Below are positions 51,086 through 57,020 of a DNA stretch of 64,000 nt, piece after piece. The first letter of the stretch is position 1. Every line of letters starts with the position of its first letter. The position numbers were made by a program, and so were the translations under genes. The stretch comes from Calditrichota bacterium (GTDB lineage Bacteria; Calditrichota; Calditrichia; Calditrichales; Calditrichaceae). The stretch is from NCBI GenBank assembly GCA_013151275.1, contig JAADIP010000158.1, positions 1,622 to 65,621 on the forward strand, read 5' to 3'. Under the pieces are notes generated by a model that was given only the letters and a program-made list of their open reading frames with translations, did no database searches and was not told the origin of the DNA.

Positions 51086-53086
51086 TTATTTTTTAGCCTT
51101 ATTCACGTTCTTGCTTACTAAAAAATCCGCCCAGATTATTGTCGCAAGCGCGGGATTAAAATCTTCGATACCCACGGGATTTAAGCGTTCGTTAAAATGC
51201 AGACCCTCCGGAATATAGCCGAGAATTCCCTCATTTACCAGATCGAAAAGAGGGGTGAAATAATTTTTCCATATTTTATCGATTTTATCCGCGTCGTCCG
51301 AATATTTCAGCAGCGCCTGCACATAAAAAATAATTGTCCAGGGCCATACGGCGCCGTTGTAAAAATCAAGTAATTCCGTTGTATCCGAATACTCGTTTTT
51401 CCGATATCCGCTGTCATAAATCGACTGGGAACGCAAACCATAAGGCGTGAGCAATTCTTCTTCGATTCGGGATAGAACCTTTTTGGCAAAAGCATCGTCG
51501 CACACGGAAAAGGGCAAACAAAGAGGAATAATCTGATTAAGTCTGAAATCCTCGTTAGCCGAATCGTGATTGATAAAATCATAAAAAATTATTTTTGATT
51601 TACTGACAAATTTTTTATTAAAACTTTCCCGCACTTTTTCCGCCAGTTGCCGATATTTTGCGGTAAGACGCCGCTTTTTTAATTTTGAACTGAAAAGTTC
51701 CAGAGTTTTTAAGGCGTTATACCAAAGGGCGTTTACTTCTAACAATTTTCCGTAACGATACACCTCATTATTTTCTTTTTTTAACGGGAACCACGAAACA
51801 TTAATCGAACGATCGCCCGCAAAAACAAGTCCGTCTTTTCCGGCATAAATATTAAACGTTGTTCCTTTTAAATAACAATCGACAATCGAGCGAAGTTTTT
51901 CGAATAACTGTCCTTCGATAAATTGCAAATCGCCGGTGATCTTGTAATACAAATAAATTACGTAAATCAGCCATAAGCCCAAATCCGCCTGATTGTACAC
52001 CGGTTTTTCATCTTTTACGGGATAATTGGTGGGAAGCAGCCCGGAATCGAGATAGTTGAGAATATTCAGAATTGTGTTCTTAAAATGCGCGTAATTTTTT
52101 GTCGTGTAAAGGATAGCGGCTAATTCGAGCAAAAAGTGAAGCAGGTTCTTCTGATTATTCATCTGGGAAACAGGGAATTCAAATTTATCTTCGCGAAAAA
52201 GGATGGATCGTTGCAACGATTTCCCTATTGGGGTTACCAAAGGATTACGGGTAGAATAATTGAACAAATTGAGATCGCGACGTTTGGTTTCCCGGTAAAA
52301 TTGTTCTTCAAAATCCAGTTTAAAATCGTCCAGAGAATCGGTGGCAACAAAAAGATCGAATTTTTCGTAAGGCTTTAATTCCACCTGAAAAAAGCCCGGG
52401 TTAAAAAGATCTTCTTTGCTCTGTCCGTATTTTTGAAAATCTTTAGCATAAATAAAGCTGTGATACCACAAAGAAGCCGTAATGAATTCGCCTTTGTCAA
52501 AATAAATGTACAATTCCGGCATTTCGGGTCGCGGCGCCCAGCGGACAAAAGAGTTGCCCAAATAGGTATCGGTGTTCAAACCCTGAATTTCGCGGTTTAA
52601 CAAATCGTTGAAGCGCACGGCAATAAAGGGTTTAATAACCAGAGTAACGGGGCGTCCCTGATTCATTAATTCGTAACGAACAAGTAAAATGTTTTGATGT
52701 TCCAAAAGAAACAATACTTTGCGGATACGACGGTCTTCGATTTTGTAAACAAAGGTGGGAAAAGGATTTAAAGAAAATTTCTCCTGATACTGATAACCGT
52801 GGGGATAAACGCTGTCCTTGTAGCGGTTAGTCGAAATTTCGAACAACCGGTTTTCAATAAAAATAGTCTCTTCAAATTTGGCAAGCGTTACAACTTTTCG
52901 GTCCAACGACGAATGAGGGACCACAAGTAATCCGTGTTCGCGGCGCAGATTCATTCCGGTTACACTTGAACTGGAATAGGCGCCGAGTGCATTTGATTCG
53001 AGCCATTCGTAACGTTGAAACTCATTGATATTATGCAACACATCCTTATGAAATTCCATAATCTTTCCTTCGTCTCCTGTTTTCAT
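51086..53086 (-). CDS. Glycogen debranching enzyme-like protein (GDE_N + amylo-alpha-1,6-glucosidase domain), catalytic motifs degenerate
   Basis: EWLESNALGAYSS, RREHGLL, GKLLEVNALWYNAL, LLTPYGLRS, YNGAVWPW conserved; canonical WGRD and TWMD segments not found. Confidence 0.8.
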   Translation of the reverse strand: MKTGDEGKIMEFHKDVLHNINEFQRYEWLESNALGAYSSSSVTGMNLRREHGLLVVPHSSLDRKVVTLAKFEETIFIENRLFEISTNRYKDSVYPHGYQYQEKFSLNPFPTFVYKIEDRRIRKVLFLLEHQNILLVRYELMNQGRPVTLVIKPFIAVRFNDLLNREIQGLNTDTYLGNSFVRWAPRPEMPELYIYFDKGEFITASLWYHSFIYAKDFQKYGQSKEDLFNPGFFQVELKPYEKFDLFVATDSLDDFKLDFEEQFYRETKRRDLNLFNYSTRNPLVTPIGKSLQRSILFREDKFEFPVSQMNNQKNLLHFLLELAAILYTTKNYAHFKNTILNILNYLDSGLLPTNYPVKDEKPVYNQADLGLWLIYVIYLYYKITGDLQFIEGQLFEKLRSIVDCYLKGTTFNIYAGKDGLVFAGDRSINVSWFPLKKENNEVYRYGKLLEVNALWYNALKTLELFSSKLKKRRLTAKYRQLAEKVRESFNKKFVSKSKIIFYDFINHDSANEDFRLNQIIPLCLPFSVCDDAFAKKVLSRIEEELLTPYGLRSQSIYDSGYRKNEYSDTTELLDFYNGAVWPWTIIFYVQALLKYSDDADKIDKIWKNYFTPLFDLVNEGILGYIPEGLHFNERLNPVGIEDFNPALATIIWADFLVSKNVNKAKK

Positions 53087-53157: not shown

Positions 53158-54963
53158 TTATTGAGCTCCCTTTCTTTTAATTACGGCAATAAATGTTTCC
53201 CATAATAACCTGAGATAGCCCCTTAAACTGACAACTTCGCGGTACTCGCCCAACCTCTCCTGTTCCAAAGCCGATAAAGAAATCAACGCCGATTGAAAGC
53301 TGTCGTGAAGCGCCCTGTCTTCCGCCGTTAAATCCGATCGTCCTCTTGCCTGCCAGAAACCTGCTAAGCCCAATCGTCCCTGAAAACGGATTCTGGCTAC
53401 CTCCGACATATCGAGATTATCGCTCCTTAAACCCTCCGCCTGCAATATTTCCGCCTCTTGTTTCGGCAACGCCCAAATTCCCACCAGACTCAGATCGCCT
53501 TTTAACACATTGATTAAAAGCGGCAGTTCATCCAGACTTGTTCTTCTTAAAAATCTTCCTACCCGGGTTACCCGCGGATCATTCTCGATTTTCCGATAGG
53601 GTCCCGATTTGTACACATTTTTGTTTTCGGATTCGTTCAGACGATTATCGGCATTCTCGTACATTGTACGAAAAACATAATATTTTACCGATTCTTCTTT
53701 TATATATTGATAGTGATTTTTATCTTTAGATTCAAATTTAGGTCTTTTTAATCTTTCACTAACATAAAACACCGACCCGCGCGAATCCAATTTAATGAGA
53801 ATTGCAATAATTAAAAAGAGCGGTAAAAGCAAAATCAAACCGATCAGCGCGATTGTTTTGTCGATCAAACCGATAAGCAGACGATTTGCCTTAACCTTCA
53901 ACGGTTCTTTTAAATAGTCGCTGATAATAAAATTTTCTTCCACAAACGTGCCGAATAAATTTTTCAGTGAAATGTAGCAATTCTTAGCCACAATCGAATC
54001 TCTCAACTCCACCATTTTGCCGATATAGGTGTTATCCAAAATAATGCTTTGGGTTATCGTTGCGCCGCGATCTATTTTAACGTTGTTTCCTATTATCGCC
54101 GGACCGCGAACGGTAACTTCTTTGCCGATCTCGCAACGGTCGCCGATCAAAATCGGTCCGACGGCGTCCTCCTCAAAATTAGCCTTGATCCTGCAGCCCC
54201 GCCCGATGATAATATCGTCTTTAACGGGTCTCCCCTCGATCCATTCTTTAAAAATTCCCTGTTCCAGCAATTTCAAATTTAGTTTCCAGTAATAATGCAA
54301 AGAAGAGAGGGGTTCAAAAAAACCGTCGGTCTTAATCACATTAATATCGACATTTTTCCGAAGTAAAGCGGAGACCAGGTCTTGCGCTATCGAATTTATA
54401 TTTTTGTCGTCCAAAAAATCCAAAAGATCGGGTTCCAACAAATACAGCCCGGTTAAAAGCAGCGTCTGTTCATTTTCCCTCGATTTTTTAATCCGGTTTA
54501 TTTTCAGCAGCTTTTTGCTTTCCGGATCGTATTGAATTTCAAAATGATTTTTAATCGGATTAAATTCGGCGCAAACCAGCGAAAGCATTTTTTGGGAAGC
54601 CTTATGTTCGGCGACGGCTTTTTCCCAGTTCAAAAAGGTAAAAAAATCGGCGTCGCTAAAAATAAAAGGAGCGTCCAAAGAGCTGCGAATTTTTCGCAGA
54701 CAGCGGAAATCGCCGTATAATTCTTTTTCCAGAGAATACGAAATTTTTACGCCCAACCTTTTTCCGTCCTTAAAATACCGCTCAACCTGTTCCGGAAAAT
54801 TGTGCAGAATTATTTTAATATCTTCGATACCCGCCTTTTTGGCTTGAAGGATGTAATATTCGAGCATCGGACGATTTAACAAAGGCGCCATCGCTTTGGG
54901 AATTAACCGGGTAAGCGGATTCAGAGAGTGATCCACGCCTTTTACGAAAAAAACCGCTTTCAT
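53158..54963 (-). CDS. Fusion: degenerate NDP-sugar pyrophosphorylase-like domain + left-handed beta-helix + bacterial sugar (phosphoglycosyl) transferase domain
   Basis: [24 protein letters not shown]-terminus; hexapeptide repeats ([13 protein letters not shown]...); [20 protein letters not shown]...GDLSLVG. Confidence 0.82.
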
Positions 54964-55518: not shown

Positions 55519-55854
55519 TTAAAAACTGTTTATTGCGTCTTCCTGTTTATCAAAAATATCAAAAATCCGATAAAGTCTCGTTAATTCAAACATGGCGCGT
55601 ACCGGCGGCTGTAAACCGACGATCTTTAAATCTCCGTTGCGCATTGTCGCTTTTTTTAAGCCAGCCACCAGAGCGCCTAAAAACGAACTGTCCACAAATT
55701 CGCATTCGCTTAAATCCACCACCACATTTGAGGTTTGTTCGTCGATCTTTTTAAGGAGCTCTTCTTTAAGCTGTCCCGAAAATTCAACGGTCGCGCGCTT
55801 CTTGTGAATTTTCGCCACCAGTACCCCGTTTTTCAGATCAAATGAAAATTCCAT
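55519..55854 (-). CDS. STAS-domain anti-anti-sigma factor (RsbV/SpoIIAA-like)
   Basis: VVVDLSECEFVDSSFLGALV with the phospho-acceptor Ser; AGGAG RBS. Confidence 0.92.
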   Translation of the reverse strand: MEFSFDLKNGVLVAKIHKKRATVEFSGQLKEELLKKIDEQTSNVVVDLSECEFVDSSFLGALVAGLKKATMRNGDLKIVGLQPPVRAMFELTRLYRIFDIFDKQEDAINSF

Positions 55855-56099: not shown

Positions 56100-57020
56100 T
56101 CATTGCGCTTGCCTAATTTTATCGATCATGGTCTTAAGATAGTACAACGGATTATCCGGTAAATCAATGTTAAAGACGGATTTGAATCTGCTTACGTCTG
56201 CCGTAAATTTTACAACCTCAACCGTTCTGGGAGGATCAACGACAATCTTATTTTTCGTTTTGGTTAATCTCATAATTTGTTCCGCCAGTTCAAAGAGCGT
56301 TGTTCCTTTTCCCGAACCGATATTTGTCGGACCGCCGGGCGCCTCGGTATTGTTCATGGATTCCATCAGCGCGGCAACGACTATTTCGATCGAAACAAAA
56401 TCGATGACCTGTTTGCCGCCGTAAATATGAATATCCCGATGCTTAAACACATTATTTAAAAAGATCGGAATAACCCGGTCGAAATCCCTTTCGCCGTAAA
56501 CATTAGCCAGCCGCAGAATTACAACTTCAAAGTCGTTCATGTTTTGAAAGACCTCGCAATACTTCTCTCCCGCCACCTTACTTGCGCCATAGATATTTTT
56601 TGAAGAGAGGGGGTGTTTTTCATCGACCGGCAGATATTGCGCTTCGCCGTAAGCTTCGCGGGAAGAAGTAAAAATAACCCTTTTTACTCCGGCGGCTTTG
56701 CACGCCTTTAGTACGTTGAATGTTCCGACCACATTTGTTTTAAACGAGTAATTAATATTCTGCACCGCGCCCATCACGTTCGATTGCGCAGCCAGATGAA
56801 AGACAATCTCACAGTCGCGGCAAGCGTCCCGAACCTGCTCGTAAAAACGGATATCTCTATTTAAAAATTCAATCTTTCCTTTTTTCAGATGATTTTTTAT
56901 GTTTTCGATTTTACCTCTGAACAAATTATCCAAAACGCGAACCGAATATCCTGCGCCGACTAAACGATCGACCAGATGGCTCCCGATAAATCCCGCTCCG
57001 CCCGTTACAAGAACCCGCAT
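56100..57020 (-). CDS. NAD-dependent epimerase/dehydratase (UDP-glucose 4-epimerase-like)
   Basis: GGAGFIGSH, FHLAA, TSS, YGASK, LRLANVYG motifs intact. Confidence 0.92.
   Translation of the reverse strand: MRVLVTGGAGFIGSHLVDRLVGAGYSVRVLDNLFRGKIENIKNHLKKGKIEFLNRDIRFYEQVRDACRDCEIVFHLAAQSNVMGAVQNINYSFKTNVVGTFNVLKACKAAGVKRVIFTSSREAYGEAQYLPVDEKHPLSSKNIYGASKVAGEKYCEVFQNMNDFEVVILRLANVYGERDFDRVIPIFLNNVFKHRDIHIYGGKQVIDFVSIEIVVAALMESMNNTEAPGGPTNIGSGKGTTLFELAEQIMRLTKTKNKIVVDPPRTVEVVKFTADVSRFKSVFNIDLPDNPLYYLKTMIDKIRQAQ

Follow-up and report, generated by a model that had tools for sequence, protein, structure and literature searches.

The first step of bacterial surface-polysaccharide synthesis consumes a lipid carrier; direct examples of how bacteria throttle it, EpsW-EpsZ and the STAS-fused All4160, first appeared only in 2025-2026. 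All4160 of Anabaena sp. PCC 7120 consists of a STAS and a Bac_transf domain and is turned off when the RsbW-type kinase Alr3423 phosphorylates Ser74 and turned on by HenR, a phosphatase of the receiver-SpoIIE type (Harada, Matsuoka and Ehira 2026, PMC13555669); according to these authors, STAS and Bac_transf fusions are nearly confined to cyanobacteria and rare outside them. In Myxococcus xanthus, EpsW acts post-translationally on EpsZ, the initiating phosphoglycosyl transferase (PGT) of the exopolysaccharide pathway (PMC12802240). Here we analyze a gene for a 601-residue protein in a 64,000-nucleotide stretch of DNA from Calditrichota bacterium (assembly GCA_013151275.1, contig JAADIP010000158.1, positions 1,622 to 65,621 of the forward strand; this whole stretch is the window). 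In this protein, a degenerate nucleotidyltransferase (NTase) domain and a left-handed beta-helix (LbH) precede a monotopic PGT domain, and its gene is accompanied by genes for a STAS protein and an RsbW-like kinase. On balance, we lean towards the view that the protein is an exopolysaccharide-initiating PGT that would be controlled by a partner-switching-like module, with STAS acting in trans, by analogy with All4160 and HenR. With such a system, control of a priming enzyme by a phosphorylation switch would reach beyond the cyanobacteria; it would also serve as a natural experiment on two residues regarded as conserved in monotopic PGTs (K59 and R111 of Campylobacter PglC), and add to the cases in which the fold of a sugar-nucleotide enzyme has been reused for regulation.

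The present family resembles the All4160/HenR/Alr3423 system (and XssP and All2285) in combining a Bac_transf priming enzyme, a STAS serine, an RsbW-type kinase and a receiver-SpoIIE phosphatase. However, in All4160 the STAS domain forms the N-terminal part of the PGT polypeptide, whereas in the window STAS is a separate protein of 111 amino acids and the N-terminus of the PGT carries the NTase-LbH module. All4160 is cyanobacterial, whereas the present family occurs in Calditrichota, Ignavibacteria and other non-cyanobacterial lineages; unlike the All4160 system, the window locus lacks the phosphatase. The window PGT has tryptophan for R111 and valine for K59. With STAS and Bac_transf encoded by separate genes, the locus is alike in logic to the All4160 type and is not a member of it. 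In the Myxococcus pair, the small signalling protein EpsW is a response regulator with one domain rather than a STAS protein, and the active site of EpsZ is canonical, with equivalents of K59, R88 and R111. A STAS switch within a polysaccharide locus is also found in the syp locus of Vibrio fischeri, with the STAS protein SypA, the kinase-receiver (REC)-PP2C protein SypE and the priming transferase SypR; there, SypE unites kinase and phosphatase in one protein and no NTase-LbH module is present. SypA and SypE are a subject of PMC10120452. To our knowledge, the target of SypA has not been established.

The 601-residue protein is a member of a small, uncharacterised subfamily of monotopic PGTs whose N-terminal NTase-LbH module precedes a re-entrant helix and the PGT domain. 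Pfam profiles match NTP_transferase at residues 12-213 (54.7 bits, cut-off 21.2), Hexapep and LbH_EIF2B at residues 250-335, and Bac_transf at residues 366-556 (118.9 bits, cut-off 27), with E-values from 1e-14 to 1e-34, i.e. not by chance; NCBIfam yields sub-threshold matches only, to WbaP/EPS sugar transferases, archaeal GlmU-type enzymes and long RmlA-type enzymes. The reading frame and the three-domain architecture bear out the initial annotation of this DNA, which had described a fusion of NTP-transferase, hexapeptide and phosphoglycosyl-transferase, and the motifs it quoted (an altered N-terminal loop, VFRTM, SLDELP and GIWA) are all found in the translation.

A full-length AlphaFold2 model built from a 70-sequence alignment (mean pLDDT 88.9, pTM 0.83) places helices at residues 355-378 and 380-393, with a break that fits the pattern D368-x12-P381. 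Because this DX12P pattern defines the re-entrant membrane helix of monotopic PGTs (PMC12802240), residues 355-393 are predicted to form such a helix. Fold matches to the whole model are NTase-LbH proteins, the best being tlr0611 (8x7s; Foldseek E 3.5e-27), followed by VTC1, GMPPB/GMPPA, ST0452, ADP-glucose pyrophosphorylases and eIF2B epsilon/gamma; 8x7s is also the solved structure nearest to the NTase half by sequence (phmmer E 3.9e-25). When residues 346-601 were modelled separately (pLDDT 90), only PglC and WbaP were matched by fold in the PDB (PglC E 1.4e-8, TM 0.71-0.75), and the same two proteins were the only sequence matches there (phmmer, WbaP 1.2e-16 and PglC 6e-07).

The fusion thus shares with Campylobacter PglC and Salmonella WbaP (8g1n, 8e37, 8t53) the fold, the DX12P re-entrant helix, the catalytic Asp-Glu dyad and the equivalents of R88, R145 and D168. 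It differs from them in K59 (valine), R111 (tryptophan) and the proline residues of the Pro-Arg-Pro (PRP) motif (isoleucine and alanine), and where WbaP has an N-terminal bundle of four helices together with a domain for nucleotide binding, the fusion has NTase-LbH. With the dyad, the fold and a Bac_transf score above the cut-off, and with the K59/R88/R111 set incomplete, we place the fusion in a divergent subfamily of the monotopic PGT superfamily, outside the canonical enzymes of the PglC/WbaP type.

Motif columns were read from an alignment of 86 fusion proteins, comprising 81 subfamily members and, at a greater distance, five NTase-LbH-PGT fusions whose PRP motif is canonical. Across the subfamily, the equivalents of R88 (R473 in the window protein) and D93 are invariant (81/81), those of E94, R145 and D168 are each kept in 80 of the 81 proteins, and the DX12P motif has its aspartate in 81/81 and its proline in 76/81. 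At the R111 position, by contrast, 80 of the 81 members have tryptophan, whereas all five canonical-PRP fusions have arginine; the K59 position is occupied by valine in 50 members, lysine in 30 and phenylalanine in one. The consensus around the tryptophan is VG[IVL]W[AG]LP, such that the usual PRP reads [IVL]-W-[AG]; in the window protein it is IWA, with both prolines replaced and W497 in place of the arginine. In the five distant fusions, KFR[ST]M and VGPRPL are retained, and three insertions that the subfamily carries in its catalytic domain are absent. The counts of the two variable positions match, with 50 proteins each for valine at the V430 position and WALP and 30 each for lysine and WGLP, and with at least one exception to the pairing (P0024). 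Such a correspondence could stem from contact within the active site or just from the presence of two clades.

K59, R88 and R111 of PglC are substrate-orienting residues conserved among monotopic PGTs (PMC12802240), and the PRP motif, likewise conserved, binds nucleotides according to PMC10186338, so that the role assigned to the PglC lysine and the GPRP arginine in the initial annotation was essentially right. Its phrase "both ends degenerate" holds for the N-terminus and not for the PGT end. Given that tryptophan is found at the R111 position in 80/81 members, the PGT changes are read as conservation rather than drift: to judge from the alignment, GIWA for GPRP is a fixed, selected subfamily signature, the replacement of lysine by valine is shared by 50/81 members, and the catalytic core is otherwise intact, with no decay. 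The PGT half is probably still a working enzyme with an altered donor site, as suggested by the invariant dyad, R88, R145 and D168 and by its position as the only PGT among the Ignavibacteria neighbours scanned (see below); this reading fits better than a dead sensor. Since K59 and R111 are both replaced, the nucleotide pocket appears to have been rebuilt, and the PGT may use another donor nucleotide than UDP-sugar PGTs do, or bind it in another way.

The NTase half presents the opposite picture. The G-loop, GxGxR(L)xPLT, holds the NTP and is the defining motif of the RmlA/GlmU-type family. In the window protein, the second glycine of this loop is replaced by aspartate and the arginine by serine (compare LAAGKGTRVRPIT in 8x7s), whereas GxGxR is kept in 68/81 relatives; further, GDFR stands in place of GTAG, IKK in place of EKP and FEPL in place of W-x-D-x-G, SDAD at the Mg-binding GD site is ambiguous, and the lysine of PK is retained. 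Five motifs (GxGxR, PK, GD, EKP and DxG) were scored across the subfamily, with P0012 as an example of a fully canonical relative. All five are present in 29/81 members, at least one is absent in 52/81, and one or none is left in 36/81. The losses differ between clades: the Calditrichota clade has lost the G-loop, GTAG, EKP and DxG, and the N-terminal degeneracy, i.e. that of the G-loop, is specific to it; Ignavibacteria clade B has lost the PK lysine, the Mg-binding aspartate, EKP and DxG and kept the G-loop; and other small groups have lost other combinations. Nevertheless, the NTase fold persists even in members where Pfam no longer detects the domain. These patterns suggest that NTase catalysis was abandoned repeatedly while the module was retained.

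By profile and by fold, the window module thus has the family fold, and with its G-loop, GTAG, EKP and DxG motifs altered we do not file it as an enzyme. With the catalytic motifs gone, the NTase half appears to be a pseudo-enzyme that no longer makes a nucleotide sugar. Purifying selection on this half indicates a pseudo-enzyme rather than junk: compared with the 95%-identical orthologue in G008 (dS about 0.2), the ratio of nonsynonymous to synonymous substitution rates (dN/dS) is 0.14 for the NTase, 0.04 for the LbH, the lowest of the three, and 0.10 for the PGT half, and neighbouring genes range from 0.04 to 0.155. The fusion gene of the window, its dead NTase half included, is under purifying selection, and on the same ratios we reject the view that the window copy is a pseudogene. 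We infer that the NTase-LbH module binds a ligand or docks regulators. GMPPA, eIF2B gamma/epsilon, GalF and GlgD, which are all among the structural and sequence matches of the fusion, are inactive NTase-LbH paralogues that serve as regulators; they (e.g. GMPPA, 7d72) share the NTase and LbH fold and have likewise lost catalytic motifs while the domain is conserved. They are, however, soluble subunits of hetero-oligomers, whereas the module of the fusion is covalently joined to a membrane enzyme. In a separate group of NTase-like and PGT fusions of 500-560 amino acids (P0143, P0148-P0154, P0170, P0179), the PGT has VGNRPLP and KFRTM and the G-loops are degenerate; pseudo-NTase modules on PGTs seem to be wider than the subfamily with the tryptophan variant (W variant).

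The subfamily is small. In a search of 5.8 billion clusters, about 70 shared the three-domain architecture, with identities of 35-69%, and the few that are named come from Ignavibacteria or Bacteroidota metagenome bins and are labelled only 'sugar transferase'. Similarly, a filter-free search with the PGT half alone against 1.84 billion representatives gave only 34 proteins at E <= 1e-30, hence the description as small. Further members come from other lineages, Sumerlaeota, Bacteroidota and a bin labelled KSB1 among them; their N-termini are all NTase/LbH-like, although Pfam fails to recognise the most degenerate ones. The fusion gene is present in 7/86 species genomes of Calditrichota, all of one family, and in 18/301 genomes of the class of an Ignavibacteria bin. 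In a FastTree tree of 52 rows, whose deep branches are weak and whose root is arbitrary, the Calditrichota copies form their own well-supported clade that is not nested within the Ignavibacteria clades. A full-text literature search for Bac_transf and NTP_transferase fusions returned only an unrelated serotyping paper.

The STAS, RsbW-like and PP2C context, of which the initial annotation of the fusion makes no mention, would seem to be the strongest clue to function. A STAS gene lies directly upstream of the fusion in 24/24 loci, from Calditrichota, Ignavibacteria and one high-GC metagenome contig; in 23 of these, i.e. those from Calditrichota and Ignavibacteria, it is on the same strand as the fusion (the Ignavibacteria loci number 18, one of which, L119, shows no more than an unscored gap of matching length). 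Thirteen of the 24 loci have a gene for an RsbW-like kinase, and genes for a family 2 glycosyltransferase (GT2) and a REC-REC-PP2C protein are found in the Ignavibacteria and metagenome loci. The order STAS-RsbW-fusion, flanked by genes for an epimerase and a glycogen-debranching-type (GDE) glycosidase, is kept in all five fusion-bearing Calditrichota relatives. Clade A of the Ignavibacteria has REC-REC-SpoIIE, GT2, STAS, a HATPase_c_2-like protein of about 190 amino acids and the fusion, followed by RmlB-like, RmlA, RmlC, UDP-glucose dehydrogenase, outer-membrane and Wzc-like proteins; clade B has a Wzx-like flippase, a histidine kinase, a receiver, a sigma-54 activator, GT2, STAS, the fusion and REC-REC-SpoIIE. 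In two representative Ignavibacteria loci (L114 and L121), 20 neighbouring genes were scanned and no other PGT was found. In the third, high-GC lineage, represented by one contig (L141), the order is GT2, STAS, HATPase_c_2, the fusion (VWALP), REC-REC-SpoIIE and a PMT_2-type transferase. Around the canonical-PRP fusions, in contrast, neither a STAS nor an RsbW-like gene was detected within 6 kb in the two loci examined (L078 and L091), a contrast of 24 loci with two.

The window carries much of this switch. Its STAS protein is of the single-domain type with a phosphorylatable serine, and the DSS/DST serine is invariant in the 23 STAS proteins aligned; the GHKL kinase has an intact N-box (NEAFVNxxxH), G1 box (DEGKG) and G2 box (GGMGLS). 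The STAS, RsbW-like and fusion genes are packed on one strand, with a gap of 4 nucleotides between STAS and kinase and an overlap of 4 nucleotides between the kinase stop and the fusion start. The window STAS protein is 53% identical to that of an Ignavibacteria locus and at most 33% identical to other STAS genes of its own genome, G000 (tblastn), suggesting that the cassette travels as a unit. An unusual insert of the YPPYP/PPFP type is common to all fusion-adjacent RsbW-like proteins across phyla. A scan for promoters and terminators found fewer sites than in shuffled sequences and is uninformative on operon limits.

By analogy with All4160, we propose the following scheme, in which the STAS and RsbW-like genes are taken as co-transcribed with the fusion. 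The PGT half, probably active, would start the surface-polysaccharide chain, i.e. carry out the priming step. Unphosphorylated STAS (Ser56) would bind and activate the enzyme, or else strip the RsbW-like protein from it; the RsbW-like kinase would phosphorylate STAS and thereby turn the enzyme off, and in relatives the REC-REC-PP2C phosphatase would turn it back on. The cytoplasmic pseudo-NTase-LbH module would serve as a docking or ligand-sensing surface. A bolder proposal, which we regard as speculative and rather improbable, is that the W-variant PGTs are not UDP-sugar PGTs at all: the tryptophan, mostly together with the valine, would line a pocket for another donor, for instance a nucleotide sugar (purine or deoxy-thymidine) or a phospho-donor that is not a nucleotide, and the pseudo-NTase-LbH module would be the receptor for gating by STAS and the RsbW-like protein. 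If true, this would be an unrecognised wiring of partner switching onto the first membrane glycan step, outside cyanobacteria.

Several observations weigh against a switch-controlled, active priming enzyme. Gene adjacency does not prove interaction, and the fusion is the putative output protein by gene linkage. Replacement of two of the three substrate-orienting residues of PglC (K59 by valine, R111 by tryptophan) should harm donor binding in PglC-type enzymes. The kinase step is doubtful in Ignavibacteria: the RsbW-like proteins of clade A (L114-L120) lack the aspartate of G1 and the whole G2 box and are thus pseudokinase-like, and clade B loci have no adjacent kinase gene. The window locus has no GT2, flippase or PP2C gene; the SpoIIE-type PP2C that adjoins the fusion in the Ignavibacteria loci and in L141 is absent from the window cluster, and a tblastn search of genome G000 for a REC-REC-PP2C orthologue gave no clear candidate (best match, 24% identity). 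The window cassette is therefore a reduced version, without GT2 and PP2C beside it, in a lineage that often loses the fusion gene. Elsewhere in the same genome, a canonical PGT lies in a full polysaccharide locus (contig C218). A search for fused, longer relatives of the window STAS found none, which is weak evidence; there is thus no Rosetta-stone link to the cyanobacterial fusions at the sequence level. Related genomes also show the fusion decaying or absent. In G002 (C30, L015:6800-8400), an NTase-LbH reading frame of 347 amino acids is followed by a PGT region broken by stops; the dyad is changed from DE to DK in the G013 copy (L014:5979-7766), where D168 is also replaced by glycine, and from DE to EN in the P0069 copy. 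G004, G005 and G001 lack the fusion and keep epimerase-STAS-RsbW-gap-GDE, and G022 and G009 keep only epimerase-STAS-gap-GDE, such that STAS is not strictly dependent on this partner. A search of the gaps in genomes without the gene found no convincing fusion remnant (best E 0.017, in G009).

Some of these observations would fit an alternative in which neither half is catalytic and the fusion is a membrane scaffold or sensor for a nucleotide sugar and/or polyprenyl phosphate, acting as a partner of the STAS/RsbW switch. We consider this double pseudo-enzyme unlikely, and yet it is the likeliest of the alternatives: the NTase motifs are lost and other residues stand at the K59 and R111 positions, the GT2 and PP2C neighbours are lost from the window cassette, the genome has a canonical PGT elsewhere, and the NTase-LbH half outlives the PGT in sister Calditrichota (the 347-residue frame of G002 and the decayed dyads of P0069 and G013). 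However, a scaffold has little reason to keep the dyad, R88, R145, D168 and DX12P pattern over such deep divergence, in 80-81 of 81 members for the catalytic residues. Moreover, the same tryptophan and valine changes occur in the Ignavibacteria polysaccharide loci, where the fusion is the only PGT among the 20 neighbours scanned, and the PGT half of the window protein evolves at a dN/dS of 0.10. Because the PGT half has decayed several times in Calditrichota, it is possible that a non-catalytic role applies to the copies of that phylum in particular. The suggestion in the initial annotation of a membrane-anchored sensor or an enzyme of altered chemistry is, accordingly, sustained in part: a non-catalytic role is reasonable for the NTase half, whose motifs are lost while the domain is conserved, and the invariant core speaks against the PGT as a dead sensor.

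An opposite possibility is that the fusion is bifunctional, the NTase making an NDP-sugar (possibly non-UDP) and channelling it to the fused PGT with a matching pocket, while the STAS and RsbW-like genes are merely co-regulated neighbours. Given the 29 members with all five NTase motifs intact, such a role may be ancestral or belong to Ignavibacteria subclade A1; the closest structures (tlr0611, VTC1/GMPPB and ST0452) are active pyrophosphorylases, and PRP is described as binding nucleotides (PMC10186338). For the window protein, which has lost the G-loop glycine and arginine, GTAG, EKP and DxG, such channelling is hard to sustain; in addition, the 52 members that lack at least one motif, including the 36 with one or none, are all of the W variant, which is thus independent of an active NTase. 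We therefore rate channelling as quite unlikely.

Similarly low is the probability that the STAS and RsbW-like proteins control a sigma factor in the classical manner and that their adjacency to the fusion reflects co-expression only. The RsbW-like protein does have the full kinase/anti-sigma architecture, and STAS and RsbW persist in genomes without the fusion, but no sigma-factor gene was found in any of the loci scanned, the STAS-fusion adjacency is kept in 24 loci from three lineages while other neighbours change, and there is a published precedent for STAS acting directly on a PGT (PMC13555669). Finally, that the gene is a decaying remnant without present function, its odd motifs being damage, is very improbable: the patchy distribution (7/86 genomes, one family) and the deletions, truncation and decayed copies in relatives would fit such a remnant, but the 601-codon frame is intact, dN/dS against G008 is 0.10 at a dS of 0.22, as in neighbouring genes, identity to the intact G007 and G012 orthologues is 53-69% with all PGT motifs kept, and the 'odd' PGT motifs are common to 80/81 members.

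Coordinates of the fusion gene, its parts and the conserved neighbouring genes are collected in Table 1.

Table 1 Fusion gene, its domains and key residues, and neighbouring genes (positions in the window).
Feature	Positions	Strand	Basis
NTase-LbH-PGT fusion gene (P0001), 601 amino acids	53158..54963	-	Open reading frame and Pfam; about 70 clusters of the same architecture; dN/dS 0.10 vs G008 orthologue
NTase-like domain, residues 1-240, predicted catalytically dead	54244..54963	-	PF00483, 54.7 bits; nearest structure 8x7s/tlr0611; motifs lost; dN/dS 0.14
Degenerate G-loop, residues 5-18	54910..54951	-	Translation; aligned to LAAGKGTRVRPIT of 8x7s and to ILAAGxGxRLxPLT of relatives
Left-handed beta-helix (hexapeptide) domain, residues 241-345	53929..54243	-	Hexapep, LbH_EIF2B and Hexapep_GlmU matches; dN/dS 0.04
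Monotopic PGT domain, W-variant subfamily, residues 346-601	53161..53928	-	PF02397, 118.9 bits; PglC/WbaP by sequence and fold
Predicted re-entrant membrane helix-break-helix, residues 355-393, D368-x12-P381	53785..53901	-	Model helices and alignment
V430, equivalent of PglC K59 (YYVFRTM)	53674..53676	-	Alignment and translation
D478-E479, catalytic Asp-Glu dyad (SLDELP)	53527..53532	-	Alignment and translation
W497, equivalent of PglC R111 (VGIWALP vs VGPRPL)	53473..53475	-	Alignment and translation
RsbW-like GHKL serine kinase/anti-sigma-like protein, 184 amino acids	54960..55514	-	HATPase_c_2, 36.8 bits; syntenic in 5/5 fusion-bearing Calditrichota relatives
Single-domain STAS protein, 111 amino acids, phosphorylatable serine in DSS (S56)	55519..55854	-	STAS, 54.5 bits
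NAD-dependent sugar epimerase/dehydratase, 306 amino acids, upstream neighbour conserved in Calditrichota	56100..57020	-	Epimerase, 171.8 bits; synteny
GDE_N + GDE_C glycogen-debranching-type glycosidase, 666 amino acids, downstream neighbour conserved in Calditrichota	51086..53086	-	Pfam; synteny

Among the flanking genes, the epimerase was considered as a possible dead enzyme and this was ruled out, its GxxGxxG and YxxxK motifs being intact. The GDE_N + GDE_C glycosidase follows the cassette in Calditrichota with or without the fusion and has a dN/dS of 0.04. In the sister Calditrichota copies, the PGT half was lost first, and the NTase-LbH half stays open in G002, G013 and P0069. In the high-GC contig, the gene after that of the PP2C protein (L141:5469-7289) encodes a PMT_2-type membrane glycosyltransferase of the GT-C fold, a hint that the lipid-linked sugar made by priming may there be consumed at the outward face of the membrane. 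In the C218 locus of the window's genome, the canonical PGT of 320 amino acids is directly followed by a STAS-domain protein of 268 amino acids (31178-33162; L144:3178-5159), beyond which the locus encodes Poly_export, GNVR/Wzc-like, two GNAT-type, DegT and GT2 proteins and a flippase, the GT2 being 33% identical to that of the Ignavibacteria cassette. This PGT-STAS pair is a second, independent PGT-STAS adjacency in the same genome.

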